Shown one piece after another: positions 1,810-53,665 of a stretch of 64,000 nt of DNA. The notes below the pieces were generated by a model. The model was not told the origin of the DNA, searched no databases, and saw only the letters and a program-made list of their open reading frames with translations. The stretch spans positions 320,001 through 384,000 of the forward strand of contig OZ252299.1 in NCBI GenBank assembly GCA_965250285.1, written 5' to 3'. The first letter of the stretch is position 1, and each line of letters starts with the position of its first letter. Source of the stretch: Myxococcota bacterium (lineage in GTDB: Bacteria; Myxococcota_A; UBA9160; UBA4427). A program made the translations under genes and the position numbers.

Positions 1810-4038
1810 ATGGTCCAGAAGATCGGTGTCGGCCTGTTGATCGTCGCCGTGCTCATGGCGGGGCTCGTCTATGCATCGGGGATGGGCTGGCTCGGTTCGC
1901 GCGACGTGCGACGCGGCGTGGTGTCGACGCCGCGTCCCGAGGCCGAGACCACCGCCCGCGTCGATGCACAGCGCGCCGGCGCCGCCGCGGTCGAGGCCGA
2001 CGCATCGAAGCAGATCCTCTTCGGCGACTTCCATGTTCACACCACGTACTCGGCCGACGCGTTCATGTTGAGCCTGCCGCTGGCCCAGGGCGAGGGCGCG
2101 CACCCGCCCGCCGACGCCTGCGACTTCGCGCGCTTCTGTTCGGCACTCGACTTCTGGTCGATCAACGACCATGCCGAGAACATGACGCCGGCGCAGTGGC
2201 AGGAGACCGTCGATGCGATCCGCAGCTGCAACGCAGTCGCGCCCGACAGCGAGCCCGACACGGTGGCGTTCCTCGGTTGGGAGTGGACGAACGTCGGCGT
2301 GACGCCCGACGATCATTGGGGCCACAAGAACGTCGTCGTCCGGGGTCTGTCGGACGACGAGGTGCCGGCACGACCGATCTCGTCGCGCGGCATGGCCTCG
2401 GCCGCGCTCGGCACCGGCCCAGGGGTCTGGGTGCGCGGCCTGATGGCGCTCGGCGGGCGCGATCGGCGGTATCACGACTTCGCGCGCTTCCTGGCTGAGC
2501 GCGACCAGAACGTCGCGTGCGAAGCCGACGTGCACGTGCGCAAGCTGCCCCGCGACTGCGTCGAGTCGGCCGAAGACCCGGCCACGCTCTTTCGCAAGCT
2601 CGACGAGTGGGGCTTCGCCTCGCTCGTGATCCCCCACGGCACGTCCTGGGGCTTCTACACGCCGCCCGGCTCGAGCTGGGACAAACAGCTGACGCGCGAG
2701 CAGCACGACCCCGATCGCCAGACCCTCGTCGAGCTGTACTCGGGCCATGGCAACTCGGAGCTCTATCGACCCTGGCGCGCGGTGATCGAGGACGGCGCCG
2801 GCGGCTACCTGTGCCCCGAGCCGAGCCCCGACTTCGAGCCGACGTGTTGGCGGGCGGGCGAGATCATTCGCCAGCGCTGCCTCGACGAAGGCGTCGAGGC
2901 GGCCGAGTGCGATACGCGCGCGGCCCAGGCGCGGCTGCATGCGGCGAACGCGGGCGTGGCCGGCCACCTGACCGTGCCGGGCGCGGAGGCCGACGAGTGG
3001 CTCGACGCCGGCCAGTGTCGCGACTGCTTCCTGCCCGCCTTCAACATGCGGCCGGCGAACTCGGTGCAGTACATGATGGCGCGCAAGGACTGGACCGATC
3101 CCGACGCCCCCCGCTCGTTTCGCTTCGGTGTCATCGCCTCGAGTGACATCCATTTTGCGCGCCCCGGCACCGGCTACAAGGAGTTCGCGCGCGAGGGCAT
3201 GAGCGAGTCGATCACGCGCGGCAACCTCGCGTTCGTCGCGCCGCCCGAGGCCGAGCCGGTGGCCGAGTCGGTGCCGTTCGGGCCCGACGACGTCGGCGAC
3301 GTGCAGGGCTTCCAGCTCGTCGAAATGGAGCGCCAGGGCTCCTTCTTCGCCACCGGGGGCCTGGTCGCGGCCCACGCGCCCGGGCGAGATCGGGATTCGA
3401 TCTGGGGTGCCCTCGATCGACGCGAGGTGTACGGCACGAGCGGTCCGCGGATCCTGCTCTGGTTCGATCTCGTCAACGCCGGCCAGGGCGAGGCGCGCGC
3501 GCCGATGGGCTCGCAGGTGCAGCTGCCCCGGTCGCCGAAATTCGAGGTGCGCGCCGTCGGCAGCTTCGAACAGAAGCCCGGCTGCCCCGACTCGAGCGTG
3601 CAGGCCCTGGGCGCCGACGAGATCGAACGCCTCTGCAAGGGTGAGTGCTATCACCCGTCCGAGCAGCGGCGGCCGATCACGAGAATCGAGGTCGTCCGGG
3701 TGCGCCCCCAGCAGCGGCCCGACGAGCCGGTCGACGCGCTCATCGAAGATCCGTGGCGGGTACTCGAGTGCCCAGGGGTCGAGGAGGGCTGCGTCGTGCG
3801 CTTCGACGACCCCGAGTTCGAGACGAGCCCGCGTGAGACGCTCTACTACGTGCGAGCCATCGAGGCGCCGAGCCTGGCCGTGAACGGCGACAACCTGCGC
3901 TGCGACCGCGACGCTTCGGGGCGCTGCGTGCGGGTGAACCGCTGCGCGGTGCCGGGCGACGAAGGCGACGACTGCCTGGCCGAGATCGAAGAGCGCGCAT
4001 GGTCGTCCCCGATCTACGTCGATCCGGTCGGACTCTGA
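1810..4038 (+). CDS. DUF3604 family exported PHP-like metallohydrolase
   Basis: N-terminal hydrophobic anchor; FGDFHVHTTYSADA, LDFWSINDHAE, GWEW, IPHG, SSDIH, REVYGTSGPRI, YYVRAIE, EERAWSSPI; Cys-rich. Confidence 0.85.
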   Translation: MVQKIGVGLLIVAVLMAGLVYASGMGWLGSRDVRRGVVSTPRPEAETTARVDAQRAGAAAVEADASKQILFGDFHVHTTYSADAFMLSLPLAQGEGAHPPADACDFARFCSALDFWSINDHAENMTPAQWQETVDAIRSCNAVAPDSEPDTVAFLGWEWTNVGVTPDDHWGHKNVVVRGLSDDEVPARPISSRGMASAALGTGPGVWVRGLMALGGRDRRYHDFARFLAERDQNVACEADVHVRKLPRDCVESAEDPATLFRKLDEWGFASLVIPHGTSWGFYTPPGSSWDKQLTREQHDPDRQTLVELYSGHGNSELYRPWRAVIEDGAGGYLCPEPSPDFEPTCWRAGEIIRQRCLDEGVEAAECDTRAAQARLHAANAGVAGHLTVPGAEADEWLDAGQCRDCFLPAFNMRPANSVQYMMARKDWTDPDAPRSFRFGVIASSDIHFARPGTGYKEFAREGMSESITRGNLAFVAPPEAEPVAESVPFGPDDVGDVQGFQLVEMERQGSFFATGGLVAAHAPGRDRDSIWGALDRREVYGTSGPRILLWFDLVNAGQGEARAPMGSQVQLPRSPKFEVRAVGSFEQKPGCPDSSVQALGADEIERLCKGECYHPSEQRRPITRIEVVRVRPQQRPDEPVDALIEDPWRVLECPGVEEGCVVRFDDPEFETSPRETLYYVRAIEAPSLAVNGDNLRCDRDASGRCVRVNRCAVPGDEGDDCLAEIEERAWSSPIYVDPVGL

Positions 4039-41180: not shown

Positions 41181-42719
41181 TCAGCGCACGCGGATCGCGA
41201 AGTGCGCCAGATCGCGCGTCTTCGCACGCAGGAGCACGGCCAGCACGAAGCCGACCAGCGCGGGGTCGGGGGCATGGGGCTTGAGGGCGTAGCGGAGGCC
41301 GAGGGTGCGCCCCGCATCGTCGTCGAGCGCGACGATCAGCTCGCCGACGCCCGCGCCGCCGTCCTCGGCCTCTTCGGCCTGAGCCCGAACGCGGAGGATC
41401 CGCCGCGCGCCGCGTTCGTACTCGGGGTTGGTCACGTGGGTGAAGAACCGGTCGACGAACGCGCGGTCGAGCTTGTCGAAGAGCGCCTCGACCGAGCCGG
41501 TTCGAGAGTGCTCCGAGAAGTTCACGCGAGCGCCGCCCTCGGCCGGCTCGACCCAGGGCTCGAGCTGTCGCTCGACCTCGTTCGTGTGGGCCGCAGTCTG
41601 CGCTGCGCGGGCGGCCTTGCGCGAGATCTGTTGCGACGTCGAGAGCTGCACGGCCCGGGTGTCGCGGCGCGCCTCGCCGACCAGCTCCTTCAGGCGCCGG
41701 ATCTCGCGGTTGCGTGCGCGCAGCTTCGACTCGAGATCGGCGTGTTGCGTCTCGACCTCCGCGAGCAGCTCTTCGGCTGCTGCGAGCTCTTCGCGCGAGG
41801 CGTCGAGGTCGTGCTCGTATCGCTCGACCATCGAGTCGTGCTCGGCGAGCACGCGCTCCATCTGTGTCTTCTTCGATTTGATCGAGCGCAGGCGCGCATC
41901 GTCCACGCGATCGGGCGGCTGGCCCCGGGTCACCTCGTCGAACTCGCGGTCGACCGCGGCGATCTCGGCGTCGAGTCGGGCACGTTCGTGCGCCGCCTCG
42001 TCGCGTTGGCGCTCTGTCTCCGTCACTCGACTTCGGAGCAGCGCCGTCTCCCGGCGGTTGACTTCGCGCAGATCGCCGAGCTCGCCCGCGACCTCGCGCG
42101 CCTCCGCGTCGATTCGGTCGAGCTCGAGCTGATCGCGGTGCAAGGCACGCACCGTGCCGAAGCCCACGAACATCACCGTGATCAGGTAGCCGTAGAGCGG
42201 CAGCGATCGGTTGTAGAGGTGGCGCTCGAGCCAGGCATCGGCGTCGGCGAAGTAGTCTTCGGCCGAGAGAGTCCAGGCGCGGCCGAGCGCGGTCAGCAGC
42301 GGCGGTCGAATGCCCTGCGCGACCTCGACGACGAGCCGGCGCCCATCGGCCAGATCGAACTCGAAGCGCTCGGCGAGCGCCGTGCGCTGCAGATCGACGA
42401 CACCGCGGTTGTGCAGGCGCAGAGGCTCACCGCCCGAGGCACGCGAGAGCGTGACGTCGACGTGCGCCGCACGACGGTCGATGTGCTTCTGGATCGCGGC
42501 CTCGGCCGCTGCATCGGTCGGCCCAGGCCACAGGGCGACCAGATCTCGCACATCGCCGGCCATGCGCTCTGCGCCGGCGATCGCGAGGTGTCGCTGGGTA
42601 TCGTAGAACGTGTGCCAGTTGAACGCGTAGAGCACCGATGCGAGCAGCACCGAGCCCGCGAGCCAGACGACGGTCGAAGCCGCCGCCGAGCGCCAGATGC
42701 GCGCGCGCAGCCCACTCAA
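41181..42719 (-). CDS. hypothetical membrane protein with long coiled coil
   Basis: TM, roughly 140-aa loop, TM, about 180-aa E/R/A-rich heptad region, globular C-terminus. Confidence 0.75.
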   Translation of the reverse strand: MSGLRARIWRSAAASTVVWLAGSVLLASVLYAFNWHTFYDTQRHLAIAGAERMAGDVRDLVALWPGPTDAAAEAAIQKHIDRRAAHVDVTLSRASGGEPLRLHNRGVVDLQRTALAERFEFDLADGRRLVVEVAQGIRPPLLTALGRAWTLSAEDYFADADAWLERHLYNRSLPLYGYLITVMFVGFGTVRALHRDQLELDRIDAEAREVAGELGDLREVNRRETALLRSRVTETERQRDEAAHERARLDAEIAAVDREFDEVTRGQPPDRVDDARLRSIKSKKTQMERVLAEHDSMVERYEHDLDASREELAAAEELLAEVETQHADLESKLRARNREIRRLKELVGEARRDTRAVQLSTSQQISRKAARAAQTAAHTNEVERQLEPWVEPAEGGARVNFSEHSRTGSVEALFDKLDRAFVDRFFTHVTNPEYERGARRILRVRAQAEEAEDGGAGVGELIVALDDDAGRTLGLRYALKPHAPDPALVGFVLAVLLRAKTRDLAHFAIRVR

Positions 42720-43932: not shown

Positions 43933-44820
43933 TCAGCTCTGCCCCTGTTCGCGCAGCGCCCGCTGGCGGAGCGAGGCCGCCGACTTCGGGCCCTGATCCG
44001 CCGAGCGAAGCAGGATCGACTGGCTGCTGTGGCCGATCGGCCCCTTCGCATCGTGGACGAACGCGAGCGCGGTGCCGGCGCCCTCGCCACCGTAGTGGAT
44101 CAGCCCGTCGAGTCCGACCCACTCGCCTTCGAGCGGGCGATGCAGATTCACGCTCGTATCGGGATTGATCGCGCTGAAAGCCCGCGCCGGCGGAATGCCG
44201 CCGCTGCGGAACGTCCGCGAAATGAACGAGCAGGAGTAGGTCCAGTCGGCGACGAGCGCGGTGCGCACGAAGGGCGAGAGCGTCTCGCCCTCGACGAGCG
44301 GCAAGCGCATGCGAAACCAGATCGCCGGTCGCTCGGCGCCCTGGACCGGCTGGAAGTCGACCGCCTGATGGAACGCCGGCGGCATCGGCTCGTCGCTCTG
44401 CGGGATGAACGAGCCCGACCACTCGGGATCGGGCGCCGGCATCGGCAGCCCCGTGCCGTACGACGTCGGCTCCTCGGCCGTATCGATCTCGGAGACGCGC
44501 AGGCGCATCGCCGTCGCGCGCGCACACACCCGGCCGTCGGCCTCGATGCGCGCCTCGACCAGCTCACTGCTCCGGCCGGCGTGGAAGATCTCGGTCGGCG
44601 TTTCGAGCGGCGTGAGCGGCGCCGCCCGCATCATGTCGACGGTGAAGCGCGTCACCTGAAACTCGCCTTCGCTCGGGACGCCCTCGATGGCGCGCGCCAG
44701 CAGCCCGAGCATGGCGCTCCCGTGCATCGTGCCCTCGTACCACGGGCCGGTGGCCAGTGGCTGCGGAATCCAGCGCGCCCCGTCGCGGGCGAAAATGAAG
44801 GGCGGAACATCGGCGGGCAT
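43933..44820 (-). CDS. double-hotdog thioesterase family protein
   Basis: TGPW..GTMHGS, RFTVDM, LVADW, INPDTSVNLHR. Confidence 0.85.
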   Translation of the reverse strand: MPADVPPFIFARDGARWIPQPLATGPWYEGTMHGSAMLGLLARAIEGVPSEGEFQVTRFTVDMMRAAPLTPLETPTEIFHAGRSSELVEARIEADGRVCARATAMRLRVSEIDTAEEPTSYGTGLPMPAPDPEWSGSFIPQSDEPMPPAFHQAVDFQPVQGAERPAIWFRMRLPLVEGETLSPFVRTALVADWTYSCSFISRTFRSGGIPPARAFSAINPDTSVNLHRPLEGEWVGLDGLIHYGGEGAGTALAFVHDAKGPIGHSSQSILLRSADQGPKSAASLRQRALREQGQS

Positions 44821-44909
44821 GGGTTCTCCGTGGGCTCGCCCACTCGAACGACGACGGCGCGCCCCGGTCGAGTCGGTGCGTCGGCGCCGCTTCGGGCACG
44901 GGTCGGGCT

Positions 44910-45353
44910 TCAGGGCGCTTCGTGGATGGCGCCGCGCGCGCCAGGCGCGCGGTGGCCGAGGTTCGAATCGTAGACGAGAACGCGGGCGGCGGCCGGTGCC
45001 AACACCTCGCGGCCGGCTCGCACGTGGTCGGGATGTGCGAGATACGTCTCGAGGGCGGCCCGGTCGCGCAGCACCACGACGATCGACAGGTCGAAGCTGT
45101 CGTCGACGATCGGTCGGTCGCTCTCGATGGGTCCACCCACGAGCACCTGCTCGACGCCGTCGATCGACTCGAAGCCGAGCGAGGCGTGCACGAGGGCGGC
45201 TCGCGCTTCTGAGTCGTCGGGATCGTTCAGCCATACGATCACGACGTGCGCCACGCCGGGCTCGCCGGGCGGCGGCGCCGCGCAGGCGCCGAGCACGAGC
45301 GAGGTCAGGACCGCGGTGGCAATGAGCCGCGCGCGGCGCGCCACGCCGTTCAT
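44910..45353 (-). CDS. Dabb (stress-responsive alpha/beta barrel) lipoprotein
   Basis: Lipobox LGAC; HVVIVWL ... FD ... YLAHPDH. Confidence 0.8.
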   Translation of the reverse strand: MNGVARRARLIATAVLTSLVLGACAAPPPGEPGVAHVVIVWLNDPDDSEARAALVHASLGFESIDGVEQVLVGGPIESDRPIVDDSFDLSIVVVLRDRAALETYLAHPDHVRAGREVLAPAAARVLVYDSNLGHRAPGARGAIHEAP

Positions 45354-46357
45354 GAAGCCTCTCCGCCGGGCGCAATGATGATGGCCTCGTCGCGCAGCGC
45401 CTTCGTGAACTCGAGGAGCGCAGCCTGCTCGCGTTCGCGCTCGACGCGGCTGCGCACCTCGGTCTCGACCTCGGCAAGCGGTGGATCGACCGCGGGCCGC
45501 GCGTCGCTCACGAAGACGAAGTGCTGTCCGAAGCTCGACGCGATCGGGCCAACGAAGGCCCCCGGTTCGGCCTCGAACGCGCCGCGCGCGAAGTCGTGGC
45601 CGAAGCGGCGCGCGAGCTCGTCTTCGCTCGTGCCGCGCACGCGCACGGGCAGCAGGGAGGGGTCGCCGAGCTCGACGGCGTCGTCGGGCGAGAGACCCGG
45701 GCTGCGCAGCTGCTCGCCGACCTCACGCGCCACGGCATCGAGCGCGTCGCCGTGGCGGTCGCGGCTCAGATAGATCTGCGTGAGATCGCGGCGCGCTGGT
45801 CGCTCGAACAGTTCGGGGTTCGCTTGGAGGAACGCTTCGAGCTCGGCGTTCGACGGGGGGTCACGGCGCGACGCTTCGGCCACGGCGAGGCGCACGCGTT
45901 CGCGCAGGCGGCGCTGCACGACGATGTCCGTCTCGTCCATGCCCTGCTCGTATGCTCGGGCGAGCAGGGCCGCGTCGTCGGCCGACGCATCGGTTTCGAG
46001 AAAACGCTGGTTCTGGATCAGCCGCCGCTGCACGACGGGGTCGGTGCGGTGCCAGCCGCGCCGTCGCGCTTCGGCGACGAGCAGCCGGTCATCGATCTCG
46101 CGGTCGATCAGGTGGCGGCGCAGCGCCGCATTGGGTGCACGCCCGGTCTGTTGGGCGAAGGTGATCTCGAGCGCCTGAACGTCGGCATCGCTCAGCACGA
46201 TCGTCGGACCGTCGGGCGCGTCGTCGAAGATGCCCGCGGCGGAGTAGATCAGCCCACCCGCAAAGAGGAAGGCGACGCCGCGCACCCACGGTCGCGCGAG
46301 CCACGGCCGCGTCGGCGCTTCGCCTCGCTCGCGCACGGTGTCTCCGCGATCGCTCAC
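45350..46357 (-). CDS. membrane-anchored parvulin/PpiC-like peptidyl-prolyl isomerase
   Basis: N-terminal TM; EARRRGWHRTDPVVQRRL; FG..FA; GPIASSFGQHFV; GTG start overlaps the DUF3604 stop. Confidence 0.8.
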   Translation of the reverse strand: MSDRGDTVRERGEAPTRPWLARPWVRGVAFLFAGGLIYSAAGIFDDAPDGPTIVLSDADVQALEITFAQQTGRAPNAALRRHLIDREIDDRLLVAEARRRGWHRTDPVVQRRLIQNQRFLETDASADDAALLARAYEQGMDETDIVVQRRLRERVRLAVAEASRRDPPSNAELEAFLQANPELFERPARRDLTQIYLSRDRHGDALDAVAREVGEQLRSPGLSPDDAVELGDPSLLPVRVRGTSEDELARRFGHDFARGAFEAEPGAFVGPIASSFGQHFVFVSDARPAVDPPLAEVETEVRSRVEREREQAALLEFTKALRDEAIIIAPGGEAS

Positions 46358-48312
46358 GGCGTCCCGGTGCCGACCCAGATCGGCGACGTCCAGGCCCGCT
46401 GCTGGATCGTCTTCGCGTGTTCGGGGGCGCAGCAGTCCTCGTAGCCGGGCGGCACCGAGCGCGCGGCGCCGTCGCATACGACGCCGGCCTCGCGGCAGAC
46501 CCTCTGGCTCCAGCGGCAGGTCGGGTTCTCGATCACGCGCGCATAGTAGAAGGCGGGCTCGCCCGGATCGAACGCATCGTCGGTCCAGACGGCGCACAGC
46601 TCGCGCGCGCCCCGGCCCTCGGGCTCGCAGGTCATCGTGTCGACCGTCGCGCCGTTCTCGCCGCCCGCGACGTCGACGACACGCTCGCGCAGCTCGTCGC
46701 CATCGAGCCAGCCCTTCACGATCTGGATGCGCTGCAGGTCGGTGCCTTCCGCCCCAGGTACCCCGGCGTCGGCCCGTGCCGAGACGAGGAACCTCAGCGG
46801 GGCGGTCGCTTCGGGGGGCGACTCGAGCTTGCCGCCCATGGGCATCCCACCCGCGTAGGCGCGAGCGACCCGGTCGCTCGCATCGCACAGATCTTCGGGC
46901 AGGTCGTAGCCGCCGAAGAGGCGGGCTTCGATGCGCGGGCCGCTCGTACCGTACGTTTCGCGGCGCTTCAGCGCAGCGAAGATCGAGCTGCGTGAGTTCT
47001 CTTCGGCCCAGACGACCGCGAGCCCCCCCGGCCCGAAGTCGATCGCATCGGGCAGGCCGCCGTCCATCGTCTGGTCGGGGGGCTTGCCCGCGCCGCCGTG
47101 GCCGGGGAAGGAGGCGCTCTGCTCGACGAGGCCCGGCGTGCCGAGGTGCGTATCGGTGCTCGCGATGATTCCGTACTCGAACGGGTTCACGCCGAGGCGC
47201 TGCTCCTGAGCGAGGCCCTCCTGCAGCACGTGTCGCACGAACATCCGCGGCACATGTTCGCCGTTCTGCCATGGCAGGAACCGCGCGCCCATGGTCGTCG
47301 TGTCGAGCTTCTCGAAGCCGCACAGCTCGTCGTTCGTGCCGACGCCGGTGCGGCACTCGCTGTCGCCCTTGTGCTGCATGATCTCGACGAGGCGTTCGAG
47401 TCGGTGACGTTTCGAGGCGATGTCGACATCGATCGGCTGCCCGGCATCGTCTTCGATCGCGAACATGTAGCCGCCGCCGAGGTTCGAGTTGTGGGGGATG
47501 ACGATGACGTCGCAATCGATGTCGGCGCCGGTGCAGTCGCGCTCGAGCGCGTCCCAGAGCCCCTCGGGCTCGGGCTCGTCGATGGCCGAGGTCGGCAGCT
47601 CGGGCACCGCGTCGTTTGCGAAGATGACGTTGCGGTGCATGTTCGCCGAGGTCGATCCCTTCTGACCCGTCCACTCGTAGGCTGTGAACGCCGTGAACGT
47701 GCACGCGTCGCTGCGATCGGTCGCGGCATCGGCGGCGCGCTGCATCTCCTGCCACGGCCCTCGGGAGGCCTCGATGCAGAGCTCGCCATTCTCGCCGCAG
47801 AAGGCCGGGCGATCGCCCATGCTCGCCTGCAGGTTCATCAGGAAGAACGCGGCCCGGGGCCACCAGCGGTAGATGCGGCACTGGATCGACGTGTACCCGG
47901 CGAGGTCGGGGTCGGTGCAGTGCTCGAGCTCGCCGAAGACCTCGGCGTGATCGGTGACGGCCGCGAAGTCGAGCGGGCGCGAGAGCTGAACGTGGCGGAG
48001 CGGGTTGCCGTCGTCGTCGTGCGGTTGGATGCCGATGCGTTCGCCTCGGGCGAAGCGGTACGCCTCCTCGGGGCCGTTGCGGGTATCCATGGTCGAGGCG
48101 TCGAGCGAGTAGCGCGTGTGCACGTGCAGGTCGCCGAAGAGCGGCTGCCGGTCGGGCGTGTGGTTCGCGCAGACGCCGAGCTCGACGTCGGTCTCGTTGA
48201 TGTCGCCGGTGATGAGCTCGCTCGTCACGGCGAGCGCATGGGTGGCGACGCAGCTGAGCAACGCGACGAGCAGAGCGCTTACGGCGGCGCGCGGGGCTTT
48301 CGATCGGGGCAT
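46354..48312 (-). CDS. DUF3604 family exported PHP-like metallohydrolase (second paralogue)
   Basis: Signal peptide; FGDLHVHTRYSLDA, LDFAAVTDHAE, AYEWT, HRNVIF, IPHNSN, QHKGDSEC, STDTH, RETYGTSGPR, QRAWTSPIW. Confidence 0.88.
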   Translation of the reverse strand: MPRSKAPRAAVSALLVALLSCVATHALAVTSELITGDINETDVELGVCANHTPDRQPLFGDLHVHTRYSLDASTMDTRNGPEEAYRFARGERIGIQPHDDDGNPLRHVQLSRPLDFAAVTDHAEVFGELEHCTDPDLAGYTSIQCRIYRWWPRAAFFLMNLQASMGDRPAFCGENGELCIEASRGPWQEMQRAADAATDRSDACTFTAFTAYEWTGQKGSTSANMHRNVIFANDAVPELPTSAIDEPEPEGLWDALERDCTGADIDCDVIVIPHNSNLGGGYMFAIEDDAGQPIDVDIASKRHRLERLVEIMQHKGDSECRTGVGTNDELCGFEKLDTTTMGARFLPWQNGEHVPRMFVRHVLQEGLAQEQRLGVNPFEYGIIASTDTHLGTPGLVEQSASFPGHGGAGKPPDQTMDGGLPDAIDFGPGGLAVVWAEENSRSSIFAALKRRETYGTSGPRIEARLFGGYDLPEDLCDASDRVARAYAGGMPMGGKLESPPEATAPLRFLVSARADAGVPGAEGTDLQRIQIVKGWLDGDELRERVVDVAGGENGATVDTMTCEPEGRGARELCAVWTDDAFDPGEPAFYYARVIENPTCRWSQRVCREAGVVCDGAARSVPPGYEDCCAPEHAKTIQQRAWTSPIWVGTGTP

Positions 48313-48331: not shown

Positions 48332-49750
<1,419 letters not shown>

Positions 49751-49768: not shown

Positions 49769-52700
49769 TCAGCCGACGAAGCGTCGCGCGTTGCGGAACA
49801 GACGCATCCACGGCCCATCCTCTTCTTCGGTCGAGGGGTGCCACGAGTGCTGCACGGTGCGGAACACGCGCTCGGGGTGCGGCATGAAGATCGTTGCGCG
49901 GCCGTCGGTCGACGTAACGCCCGTGAGGCCGGCTCTCGAGCCGTTGGGGTTGTCGGGATAGCGCTCGGTCGGTGCACCCCGGTGGTCGACGTAGCGCGCG
50001 CTCTCGAGGCCCTCGTTCGACAGCGCGGCAGCGGCCGCCGCGCTGCGGTGCTCGACCCGGCCCTCGCCGTGCGCGACGGGCACCAGCAGGCGAGACCCCG
50101 CCATGTCGGCGAAGAGCACCGAGGGGCTCTCGAGCAGCTCGACGGTGACGAGCCGGGCCTCGAACTGCTCGGATCGGTTGCGTACGAAGCGCGGCCAGTG
50201 GCTGGCGCCCGGGATCAGCTCGTAGAGGTTCGAGAGCATCTGGCAGCCGTTGCAGATGCCGAGCGAGAAGGTGTCGGGGCGCTCGAAGAACGCTGCGAAT
50301 GCGTCTCGGGTCGCCGGGTGGAAGAGCACCGACTTGGCCCAGCCCTCGCCGGCCCCGAGCACGTCGCCGTAGCTGAACCCCCCGCATGCGACGAGCCCCT
50401 TGAAGTCGGCGAGGTGGCGCCGTCCCTCGAGCAGGTCACTCATGTGGACGTCGATCGCTTCGAAGCCGGCCCGGTCGAAGGCCGCGGCCATCTCGACGTG
50501 ACCGTTCACGCCCTGCTCACGCAGAATCGCCATGGGCGGTCGCACACCGGTCGCGACGAAGGGCGCGGCGACGTCCTCGCTCGGGTCGAACGTCGTCGTC
50601 GGCGTGAGGCCGGGATCGTCGAGGTCGAGTCGCGCCGCGTGTTCTTCTTCGGCGCACTCGGGGTCGTCGCGCAGCGCCTGCATGCGGCGTGTCGTCTCGC
50701 TCCAGAGGTCGCGCAGGGCGTCGCGGCCGCGTTCGAAGAGGATGCGGTCGCCGCTTCGCACGCGCACTCGATCGTCGCCGGTCGGTCGCCCGATCCAGTG
50801 CGATGCCTCCGCAAGCTCGTGCCGAGCCAGCAGCGCTTCGACGGCCTCGACGTCGCCTTCCCGCACCTGCAGGACGGCGCCGAGCTCCTCGCAGAACAGC
50901 GCCGCGAGACCGTCGTCGCCCAGGGCCTCGAGGTCGACGTCGACGCCGCAGCCCCCGGCGAAGGCCATCTCGCACAGCGTCGCGAAGAGACCGCCGTCGC
51001 TGCGGTCGTGATACGCGAGCACCTGTCGCGCTTCGTTCGCGGCGTGGACCGCATCGAAGAACGCGCGCAGCGCCTCGGGGCGGTCGACGTCGGGCGCCGC
51101 GTCGGCGACGCCACCATAGACCTGGGCCAGCGCCGAGCCGCCGAGTCGATGCTGGCCGAAGCCGAGATCGATCAGCAGCAGGCGCGTCGCGCCCGCGTCG
51201 CTCTGGATCTCGGGCGTGAGAGACCGGCGCGCATCCGATACCGGCGCGAAGGCCGAGACGATCAGCGAGATCGGACTCGTCACGCTTTGCTCGCCGCGCT
51301 CGTCGTCCCAGACCGTGCGCATCGAGAGCGAGTCCTTGCCGACGGGCACCGCGATGCCCAGCGCCGGACCGAGCTCGAGACCGACGGCGCGGACGGCGTC
51401 GTACAGGCCAGCGTCCTCGCCCGGTGCGCCGGCGGGCGCCATCCAGTTGCACGAGAGGCGCACATGGCGCGTGCTCGGGATCGACGCCGACGCCAGATTC
51501 GTGAGCGCCTCGCCGATCGCCATGCGCGCCGCGGCGGCGGGATCGAGCAGCGCTACGGGCGTGCGTTCGCCCACGGCCATCGCCTCGCCGACGACGCCGT
51601 CGAAGTCGGCGAGGGTAACCGCGGCGTCGGCGACCGGAACCTGCCACGGGCCCACCATCTGATCGCGCGCGATCAGGCCGGTCACGGTGCGATCGCCGAT
51701 CGAGATGAGGAACGTCTTGTCGCCGACGGTGGGCAGCTGCAGCACGCGTGCGGCGGCGTCGTCGATCTCGATGGTGTCGCGCGGGAGCGGGTCGGGCGTG
51801 AACGCCACGCGCGTCACGTCGCGCTCCATCTTCGGCGGCTTGCCGAGGAGCACCTCGAGCGGCAGGTCGATCGGTGTGTCGCCGAAGTGCGCGTCGGTGA
51901 CGACGAGCTGGCCGTCGTCGGTCGCCTCGCCCACCACGGCGAAGGGGCAGCGTTCGCGCGCGCAGATGGCCTCGAACTCGTCGAGCCGATCGGCCGCGAT
52001 CCCGAGCACGTAGCGTTCCTGGCTCTCGTTGCACCACAGCTCGAGCGGGGTCATGCCCGGCTCGTCGTTCGGCACTTCACGCAGCTCGAAGCGCGCGCCC
52101 CGCCCGCTGTCGTGCACCAGCTCGGGCAGCGCGTTCGACAGGCCCCCTGCGCCGACGTCGTGGATGGCGATGATCGGGTTGTGCTCGCCGCGCGCCCAGC
52201 AGCCGTCGATCACCTCCTGGCAGCGTCGCTCCATCTCGGGGTTGCCGCGCTGCACCGAAGCGAAGTCGAGGTCTTCGGCGCTGTCGCCGCTCGCCATCGA
52301 GCTCGCGGCGCCGCCGCCCAGTCCGATCAGCATCGCGGGGCCGCCGAGCACGACGATCTTGCCGCCGGGCGGGATCGTGCCCTTGTCGACGTCCCCCGGC
52401 CGCACGTTGCCGAGCCCGCCGGCCAGCATGATCGGCTTGTGATAGCCGCGCACCGCGCGACCCCAAGGGCCGGGCACCTCGGCTTCGAACGCGCGGAAGT
52501 AGCCCGCGATGTTCGGCCGGCCGAACTCGTTGTTGAACGCGGCGCCGCCGATCGGTCCCTCGAGCATGATGTCGAGGGCCGAGGCGATGCGGGCCGGCTT
52601 GCCGTGATCGACCTCCCACGGCTGCTCGGCGCCGGGGATGCGCAAATTCGAGACCGAGAAGCCGGTGAGGCCGGCCTTCGGCTTGCCCCCGCGGCCGGTC

Positions 52701-53665
52701 GCGCCCTCGTCACGAATCTCGCCCCCCGATCCCGTTGCGGCGCCCGGGAACGGCGAGATGGCCGTCGGGTGATTGTGCGTCTCGACCTTCATCAGGATGT
52801 GCGCAGGCTCGGCATGCCGGCCATAGATGCCGGTCGCGGGATCGACGAAGAAGCGTTCGGCCTCGTGTCCGGCCATCACGGCTGCGTTGTCCGAGTAGGC
52901 CGAGAGCACGCCGTCGGGCGACTGGTTCGTCGTATTGCGGATCATCTGAAACAGCGACTGCGTCTGTGCTTCGCCGTCGATCTTCCAGTCGGCGTTGAAG
53001 ATCTTGTGCCGGCAGTGTTCGCTGTTTGCCTGGGCGAACATCATGAGCTCGACGTCGGCCGGGTTGCGTCCGAGCTCTCGAAACGCGTCGGCGAGGTAGT
53101 CGATCTCGTCGGGCGCGAGCGCGAGACCGAGCTCCTTGTCGGCCTGCGCGAGGGCCTCGCGGCCGCTGCCGATCACGTCGACCTGGCCGAAGGGCTTGGG
53201 GCTGTGCTCTTCGAAGAGGGTCTCGGCGCGGGTGATGTCGCCCGCGACCGTCTCGGTCATGCGGTCGTGCAGCGCTTCGGCGAGCACCGAGAGGTCGCGC
53301 TCGTCGAGGTCGCCTTCGGCGTGCCAAGCGATGCCGCGCTCGATGCGTGCGACGGCGTCGAGCCCGCAGATGTGGGCGATGTCGGTTGCCTTGGACGACC
53401 ACGGCGAGATCGTGCCCACCCGTGGCAGCACCAGGAGCAGCGAGCCGGCGTCGCCGGCCCCGGCCTCGTCTTCGGGCGTCGGGCCGTAGCGGAGCAGGGC
53501 TTCGAGCACCTGCTGCTCATAGGCGTCGAGGTCGCGGTCCAGCTGCACGAAGTGCATGAAGCGGGCGGAGAGTCGCTCGAGCTTCGGGATGCGGGCCGAG
53601 AGCGACCGAAAGGTCCGCTCGAGGCGCGCGGGGGTCAGGGCGTCCGCGCCGCTCAGGTGGAGCAT
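49769..53665 (-). CDS. purL: phosphoribosylformylglycinamidine synthase (large single-chain form)
   Basis: [38 protein letters not shown]. Confidence 0.97.

Follow-up and report, generated by a model that had tools for sequence, protein, structure and literature searches.

Positions 43,933 to 48,312 of a 64,000-nucleotide stretch of Myxococcota DNA (contig OZ252299.1; the whole stretch is called the window here) raise the question of why a gene for an exported, cysteine-rich protein of the DUF3604 family lies directly behind the purine synthesis genes purL and purB and is followed by genes for a parvulin-like protein and a Dabb-family lipoprotein. The original prediction, made from the sequence of this stretch, was that the three genes encode a periplasmic phosphoesterase, its dedicated folding chaperone and an accessory lipoprotein, which possibly scavenge nucleotides alongside purine synthesis. 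We find that the locus is a rearranged copy of a widespread module that encodes DUF3604, a parvulin-like protein and a HupE/UreJ-2 permease. Gene neighbourhoods and structure models lead us to favour, with modest confidence, an exported PHP-fold hydrolase that would be bound by a membrane-anchored chaperone, likely serving the enzyme family as a whole, within a rearranged triad. The features on which this reading turns are the following.

46354-48312, minus strand: DUF3604 (PF12228), exported Cys-rich PHP-fold protein with a C-terminal beta-sandwich, 652 aa; module core
45350-46357, minus strand: PpiC-like membrane-anchored protein of the PEB4/PrsA/SurA type with one parvulin domain, 335 aa; module core
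47146-48132, minus strand: candidate PHP-type metal ligands H63, H65, D71, D121/H122, E213, H226, H274, D387 and H389 of DUF3604, from conservation
46744-46782, minus strand: predicted docking loop of DUF3604, residues 511-523, D-[P/A]-G; residue 516 has the best-ranked contacts in the complex model
45488-45802, minus strand: parvulin domain, about residues 186-290 of the partner; most of the predicted interface

The DUF3604, parvulin and HupE/UreJ-2 gene families

We surveyed the best 80 of 594 confirmed DUF3604 loci in GTDB, several of which end at contig edges. A parvulin gene lay directly downstream of DUF3604 in 39/80 and HupE/UreJ-2 was found in 23/80, while purB occurred at a single locus (1/80) and genes like those for the Dabb lipoprotein and the hotdog protein behind it at none (0/80 each). 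The neighbourhood survey that had been suggested with the original prediction thus bears out the DUF3604-parvulin pair but neither the Dabb nor the purine link; the usual third gene, a HupE/UreJ-2 permease, had been overlooked. The closest DUF3604 homologues are mostly labelled Myxococcota, and the adjacency of DUF3604 and parvulin genes spans several phyla. The order DUF3604, peptidylprolyl isomerase, HupE/UreJ was annotated in 4/4 plasmid records inspected (Sinorhizobium, Pseudoalteromonas, Roseibium and Rhizobium), among 78 with a match. DUF3604 matches with E up to 1e-30 form 880 clusters at 50% identity.

The three families also occur together across genomes. Among 41 related genomes, 39 hold all three, with 1-20 full DUF3604 matches per genome, and the same two genomes (95-96% complete) lack every one of them. 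Across 151 genomes of the phylum, in which kin are not independent counts, 45 carry DUF3604 and the parvulin family (45/45 with HupE), nine carry DUF3604 only, four the parvulin family only and 93 neither. In the window Dabb stands at the module's downstream HupE position, and HupE is not in the operon; four relatives have their HupE gene 11-14 kb past the parvulin gene, as would fit a triad broken up by insertions.

A small membrane protein without a name, roughly 130 aa long (for example L092:4543-4935, plus strand), is encoded next to DUF3604 in 35/80 of the best loci (L071-L150), mostly just upstream. It has 86 homologues and, for the L092 copy, no Pfam or NCBIfam match, clusters by clade on the DUF3604 tree, and was not found in the genome to which the window belongs. 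This gene and the parvulin gene largely exclude each other, the former alone being present at 29 loci, the latter alone at 33, both at six and neither at 12, and the small membrane protein could be an alternative membrane partner of DUF3604. The other recurrent neighbours, in the 20 of 45 listed clusters that were scanned, were general catabolic enzymes that give no hint of a substrate. Tandem DUF3604 arrays occur as well: a gammaproteobacterial genome (L090) has four or more copies, and a conjugative plasmid of Sinorhizobium (L151) has two, beside genes for type IV secretion.

The enzyme, its partner and their predicted complex

The DUF3604 protein matches its Pfam profile at 545.5 bits against a cut-off of 20.4, over positions 2-589 of 591. 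Its AlphaFold2 model has a predicted local distance difference test value (pLDDT) of 95.6 and a predicted template modelling score of 0.95. In structure comparison the model aligned best with the PHP hydrolase BVU_3505 (3e38; Z 16.3, root-mean-square deviation (rmsd) 3.5, 229 aligned), followed by EndoQ (5zb8; Z 11.8), BAD_1165 (3o0f; Z 10.4) and RNase AM (7ug9; Z 8.7), and each of the top eight VIA-align rows was PHP-containing. DUF3604 shares with these four hydrolases the PHP barrel (rmsd 3.5-3.8, 181-229 aligned) and the HxH / DH / E / H / H / DxH motifs, but departs from them in its identity of 12-16%, its length of 650 aa, its large Cys-rich insertions, its export and its C-terminal beta-sandwich, for which structural matches were weak. 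H63-x-H65, D121-H122 and D387-x-H389 are intact, and the protein has 19 Cys. Across 119 homologues H63, H65, D71, D121, E213, H226, H274, D387 and H389 do not vary and H122 is kept in at least 90%, a conservation measured on what we take to be the PHP metal-ligand set. DUF3604 is likely a multi-metal hydrolase because a PHP barrel fold coincides with invariant metal motifs, and on these models we consider a metal-dependent hydrolase of some kind very probable. The exported PHP-type metallohydrolase of the original prediction is thereby supported.

Phosphoester hydrolysis is the commonest PHP activity, and by analogy we give a phosphoester substrate here slightly less than an even chance. The fold by itself does not establish a phosphoesterase, because the carbamate hydrolase McbA has a PHP-like domain; the accessible part of PMC8292978 describes the CehA/McbA enzymes as periplasmic proteins in which a PHP-like domain is predicted and histidines are essential. 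DUF3604 would resemble CehA/McbA (NF038032) in being a periplasmic PHP-like hydrolase, but the match is weak (E 6e-4, 19.3 bits against a cut-off of 80) and DUF3604 is not a member. According to the accessible text of 10.64898/2026.10.18.759936, metal binding or activity of DUF3604 has not been reported so far, and the literature searched contained passing mentions of DUF3604 and no mention of PF12228.

The parvulin-like partner exceeds the Pfam cut-off for Rotamase_2 (50 bits) and falls below that for SurA_N_3 (19 bits). Its profile and fold matches (AlphaFold2 pLDDT 97.3) are PEB4 (3rfw), HP0175, PrsA and SurA, with Foldseek E of 4e-8 to 1e-4, and like them it has a parvulin domain set into a helical chaperone scaffold. 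Unlike these proteins, it carries an N-terminal anchor (a hydrophobic segment that starts at residue 27), a duplicated N-domain motif and a His-to-Gln change in half of its family, it would be tied to one client family, and it lies below every NCBIfam cut-off, with 13-16 bits against 303-493 for the named isomerase families PrsA, SurA and PpiD. The duplicated helical motif (residues about 90-120 and 133-160; window 45950-46100 and 45880-45960, minus strand) holds most of the invariant residues of the parvulin family yet lies outside the predicted DUF3604 interface, and could be a HupE-binding or dimer site.

Catalytic parvulin residues form a dual-His motif and cleft (Pin1 H59, C113 and H157), and inactive bacterial parvulin domains exist in PpiD and SurA P1, as stated in the accessible part of PMC6468809. 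By motif and alignment mapping, the first parvulin His is Gln194 in the window copy, with D232, F256, S274 and H279 kept. The same His is Gln in 23/46 linked copies, the window copy and all four from cultured proteobacteria included. Isomerase activity of the partner is therefore uncertain, and from its sequence we regard it as doubtful.

Modelled together, DUF3604 and the parvulin-like partner scored 0.76 (runs 0.73, 0.79 and 0.76), whereas the best of three unrelated-partner controls scored 0.00, so the complex modelling advised with the original prediction returned an interface for this pair. The score mark was reached by 116/157 solved complexes and 2/215 mismatched pairs, rates that are rough given that our own alignments were used. 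The runs agreed on at least 78% of contacts, with a partner pLDDT of at least 83. A memory of a similar complex is less likely because DUF3604 is without a solved sequence relative, none having been found in PDB sequence searches. The interface is formed mainly by the parvulin domain (residues 186-303) and DUF3604 residues 49-59, 112-113, 192-205, 460-481, 511-523 and 569-573. In the best-ranked contacts, residue 516 touches parvulin positions 249-253 and 274-276, by motif mapping the probable rim of the proline pocket; position 516 is Pro in 58% of homologues (alignment A4). The docking face appears to be the back of the barrel, with the metal site left open, because the interface segments precede strands whose ends bear ligands. 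From the model, we conclude that the parvulin domain likely binds folded DUF3604 directly. Conserved adjacency, co-occurrence and the predicted complex together favour the dedicated membrane-anchored chaperone that had been proposed.

The parvulin His/Gln and the DUF3604 Pro/Ala516 were not seen to co-vary (P-H 17, P-Q 17, A-Q 3, A-H 2), and a compensated loss in the window copy (Gln194 with Ala516) was dropped for that reason. A list of columns discriminating linked from unlinked DUF3604 was left unused, as it looks like an alignment artefact.

A different explanation of the pair is a general envelope chaperone, kept beside DUF3604 by co-regulation, with a predicted interface that is an artefact of the model. 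This would account for the resemblance to SurA, PrsA and PEB4, for an interface that is not specially conserved, for a parvulin gene that outlasts the loss of DUF3604 at purB in four relatives, and for the 4/49 parvulin-family genomes without DUF3604. It sits poorly with the presence of DUF3604 in the other 45/49, with an adjacency that holds over several phyla and with the score of 0.00 for three unrelated partners, and we consider it improbable.

DUF3604 paralogues and proposed helpers in trans

The original prediction overlooked 17 further genes of the DUF3604 family: the 6.25-Mb genome has 18, nine full and nine distant, in which the PHP-type metal ligands are nearly all kept. By inspection, many of the paralogues have an N-terminal membrane anchor or lipobox of their own. 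The same genome has three parvulin-like genes of the module family and three HupE/UreJ-2 genes (PF13795; C1:312798, 2443253 and 3118021). Pro occupies the docking loop in 28/38 unlinked and 36/46 linked DUF3604 copies, counts that are approximate, with L067, L118, L123 and L124 (adjacent parvulin) binned as unlinked and with pieces below 520 aa and exact duplicates excluded. This equal share, together with a parvulin gene kept at purB without DUF3604, fits action in trans.

One of the distant paralogues lies in the window itself (1810-4038, plus strand; 742 aa, 20 Cys, PHP motifs intact), and HG replaces the K-G motif in eight of the nine. A second cluster in the genome (L156; G000:C1:2440266-2445234) reads parvulin, HupE/UreJ-2, a 131-aa exported protein with no Pfam match and a 792-aa DUF3604. 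Near the window stands a lone HupE/UreJ-2 gene (L155; G000:C1:312798-313886), which has DUF3604 downstream in the same-genus genome (L163) but not here.

The proposed sequence of events starts with a Sec-exported, disulfide-rich DUF3604 protein that would be caught and held at the inner membrane by its partner until folded and metal-loaded. The parvulin domain would dock on folded DUF3604 at the N-terminal ends of the barrel strands and at the D-[P/A]-G loop of the beta-sandwich. Metal would be supplied or handled by an Anglerase-HupE permease whose gene lies elsewhere in the genome, and the three parvulin-type and three HupE-type genes would serve the 18 DUF3604 paralogues in trans. Whether HupE acts in trans is in our estimate evenly balanced, and the HupE step is the weakest because Ang-1 prefers Cu and Ni. 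We put forward only tentatively, and as rather unlikely, a dedicated periplasmic machine for metal loading in which the parvulin domain, once a prolyl isomerase, has become a docking module that clamps the back of the folded enzyme at the membrane, the His1 'angler' domain of HupE inserts metal, and a few helpers suffice for 18 hydrolases. As in the Anglerase-HupE/UreJ-2 protein Ang-1 (PDB 9GCE; accessible part of PMC12537917), the module's PF13795 periplasmic domain begins with His after an apparent signal peptide; the HupE/UreJ-2 gene is outside the window. Neither 'isomerase' nor DUF3604 was matched in the main text of that paper, its figures and supplements being outside that look.

Several observations weigh against the chaperone reading. 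Residue 516 is Ala in the window copy even though it is the best-ranked contact, and interface conservation is not above average (mean top-residue frequency 0.50 vs 0.57 for DUF3604 and 0.53 vs 0.51 for the partner). The nine distant paralogues of the same genome are without the D-P-G loop, a parvulin gene lies within four genes of 2/18 paralogues, and the nearest HupE gene is about 52 kb away. Nine of the 54 DUF3604 genomes of the phylum have no parvulin-family match, eight of these nine also being without HupE, so DUF3604 does not strictly depend on these helpers. The usual metals of PHP enzymes are Zn, Mn or Fe. The characterised Anglerase domain, by contrast, has a preference for Cu and Ni, and Zn, Mn and Fe destabilise it slightly (PMC12537917, accessible part).

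Furthermore, the complex model involves a folded enzyme, so a permanent tether would fit it equally well. The partner would then be a lasting membrane tether or subunit of mature DUF3604, possibly beside the HupE permease, and would have no folding role. A predicted interface with fully folded DUF3604, on a face that appears to be opposite the metal site, agrees with this, as do the Gln in place of the first parvulin His in 23/46 linked copies and the inactive parvulin domains of PpiD and SurA P1 (PMC6468809, accessible part). A tether accounts less readily for only three parvulin genes beside 18 DUF3604 genes, for the many paralogues with their own N-terminal anchor or lipobox, and for a SurA/PEB4 chaperone scaffold that is fully kept. 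We regard it as unlikely, though it is the main rival to a chaperone.

NifM is a cytoplasmic protein and is unanchored. Like the chaperone we propose, it has a PpiC domain and is devoted to the maturation of a single metalloprotein, in its case a different client, NifH (accessible part of PMC12691677). Lif/LipH, a membrane-bound periplasmic chaperone, is a tight binder of one exported hydrolase, LipA (accessible parts of PMC7046727 and PMC13381987). The likeness to Lif/LipH is a functional analogy: here the client is a metalloenzyme and the partner is of the SurA/parvulin type, and the partner gave no match to the Lif family. A published description of the DUF3604-parvulin-HupE module was not found in the literature searched, which did not cover subscription papers and some supplements. 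What appears to be new here is the modelled enzyme-chaperone complex, together with evidence that the triad can be dispersed within a genome.

Purine genes, Dabb and the layout of the locus

The neighbours of the pair in the window are listed below.

49769-53665, minus strand: purL, large-form phosphoribosylformylglycinamidine (FGAM) synthase, above the NCBIfam cut-offs of PRK05297 and TIGR01735; positional neighbour
48332-49708, minus strand: purB, adenylosuccinate lyase, above the NCBIfam cut-off of PRK09285; positional neighbour
44910-45353, minus strand: Dabb-family exported lipoprotein (Pfam PF07876), 147 aa; genus-level addition
43933-44820, minus strand: double-hotdog acyl-CoA thioesterase-like protein (4HBT_3 and 4HBT_3C); neighbour only

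Our gene calls, in which the purL start is the choice of our own gene caller, reproduced those made before, including the 19-bp gap between purB and DUF3604 and the 4-bp overlaps of DUF3604 with the parvulin gene and of the parvulin gene with Dabb (GTGA and ATGA); 89 bp separate Dabb from the hotdog gene. The family assignments were recovered too (PF12228 545 bits, Rotamase_2 50 bits, Dabb PF07876 48 bits). A single hydrophobic segment is present at the N terminus of DUF3604, of the parvulin protein and of Dabb, and neither such a segment nor a signal peptide was seen in the hotdog protein; export calls rest on hydropathy and visual inspection, without a signal-peptide predictor. The one same-genus genome has the identical gene order and overlaps, with a 21-bp gap behind purB. 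The overlaps and the 19-bp gap are weak evidence because such packing is common in the genome, where 452/3482 co-directional neighbour pairs overlap by 4 bp and 1003/3482 lie within 20 bp (own gene calls).

No sigma-70-like promoter was found in a scan of the locus. Terminator-like sites numbered four against 5.4 expected by chance, one lying within DUF3604 and one within the parvulin gene, and scans for promoters, terminators and intergenic folding gave nothing above shuffles. The independent promoter or terminator that would have divided the unit originally predicted did not appear. Judged from this arrangement, co-transcription across the locus is plausible, and a shared transcript of purLB, the DUF3604-parvulin pair, Dabb and the thioesterase is probable here. 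Further along, the window encodes a 512-aa membrane-anchored coiled-coil protein (41181-42719, minus strand) with only weak SMC/ATG16-like matches; its gene is missing at the corresponding position in the same-genus genome.

The proposal that DUF3604, the parvulin protein and Dabb form a phosphoesterase system for nucleotide scavenging draws on this tight packing, which is kept in the same-genus genome and one metagenome contig, on a parvulin gene near purB in 8/19 relatives with purB (one inferred across a contig break), and on the nucleases EndoQ and RNase AM among the nearest PHP structures. It does not agree with the absence of Dabb and the near absence of purB from the 80 loci. In the 19 relatives, DUF3604 is directly behind purB in one (1/19), DUF3604 and the parvulin gene follow a few genes on in two, the arrangement is inferred across a contig break in one, the parvulin gene is near purB without DUF3604 at the locus in four, and neither gene is present in 11. 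An opposite-strand DUF481 gene and/or a DUF4156 gene intervenes between purB and DUF3604 in relatives. The four relatives without DUF3604 at this place (L032, L033, L034 and L038) have 5-14 full DUF3604 copies elsewhere; in three of them the parvulin start lies about 20 bp or less from the purB stop. No purine synthesis gene was present among the inspected neighbours of the other 17 paralogues. We consider nucleotide scavenging by these three proteins very improbable, and gene order suggests that the purine link is an inherited position. In the simplest history, an intact triad would have settled behind purLB in the ancestor of part of the family, after which insertions broke it up and Dabb was added later.

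The Dabb protein (48.2 bits for PF07876, cut-off 25) has 3bn7 as its closest solved relative (E 5e-7), from which it differs in being an exported lipoprotein, with the lipobox LGAC at Cys24; H36, H107 and H110 are conserved. Window-type Dabb matched strongly in the window's own and the same-genus genome among 41 related genomes, with one more weak match, had 0/300 matches in other genomes of the phylum at E 1e-8, and numbered five proteins in a large database, whereas the Pfam Dabb family occurs in 13/41 related genomes, one of them without the module. In 37 metagenome Dabb loci, many on short contigs, the parvulin-Dabb link was found in two (63-85% identical to the window locus); the other 35 have no DUF3604, and two of these have a weak parvulin match on the opposite strand. 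Of the 19 best metagenome loci, about 18 by inspection encode a relative with a signal peptide, so an exported Dabb is nothing out of the ordinary. In one relative the hotdog gene directly follows the parvulin gene, which suggests that Dabb was inserted between them, and Dabb codon usage is not foreign (codon adaptation index percentile 43).

A genus-specific exchange, in which Dabb replaced HupE as a metal- or ligand-handling helper, could explain why Dabb is found where HupE usually stands, why in both genus members it has a 4-bp overlap with the parvulin gene, and why its three histidines are kept. HupE, however, is already out of the operon in relatives without Dabb, three HupE/UreJ-2 genes remain in the genome, and the exported Dabb subfamily is without DUF3604 in 35/37 metagenome loci, many of them short contigs. 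We consider this exchange very improbable. Genus-restricted, and unlinked to DUF3604 where its relatives occur elsewhere, Dabb is not supported as the accessory lipoprotein that had been proposed; with good confidence we take Dabb, the thioesterase and purLB to be passengers.

The links to Dabb and to the purine genes, from which this analysis set out, are thus of little importance. For DUF3604, a large family that is still uncharacterised and has expanded strongly in this lineage, the predicted interface names residues to mutate, and expression of the protein for substrate screening may need the parvulin partner. If the chaperone reading is true, a SurA/PrsA-type protein would be dedicated to one exported metalloenzyme family, and the module would offer a lead on metal supply to exported enzymes and on the clients of Anglerase permeases.

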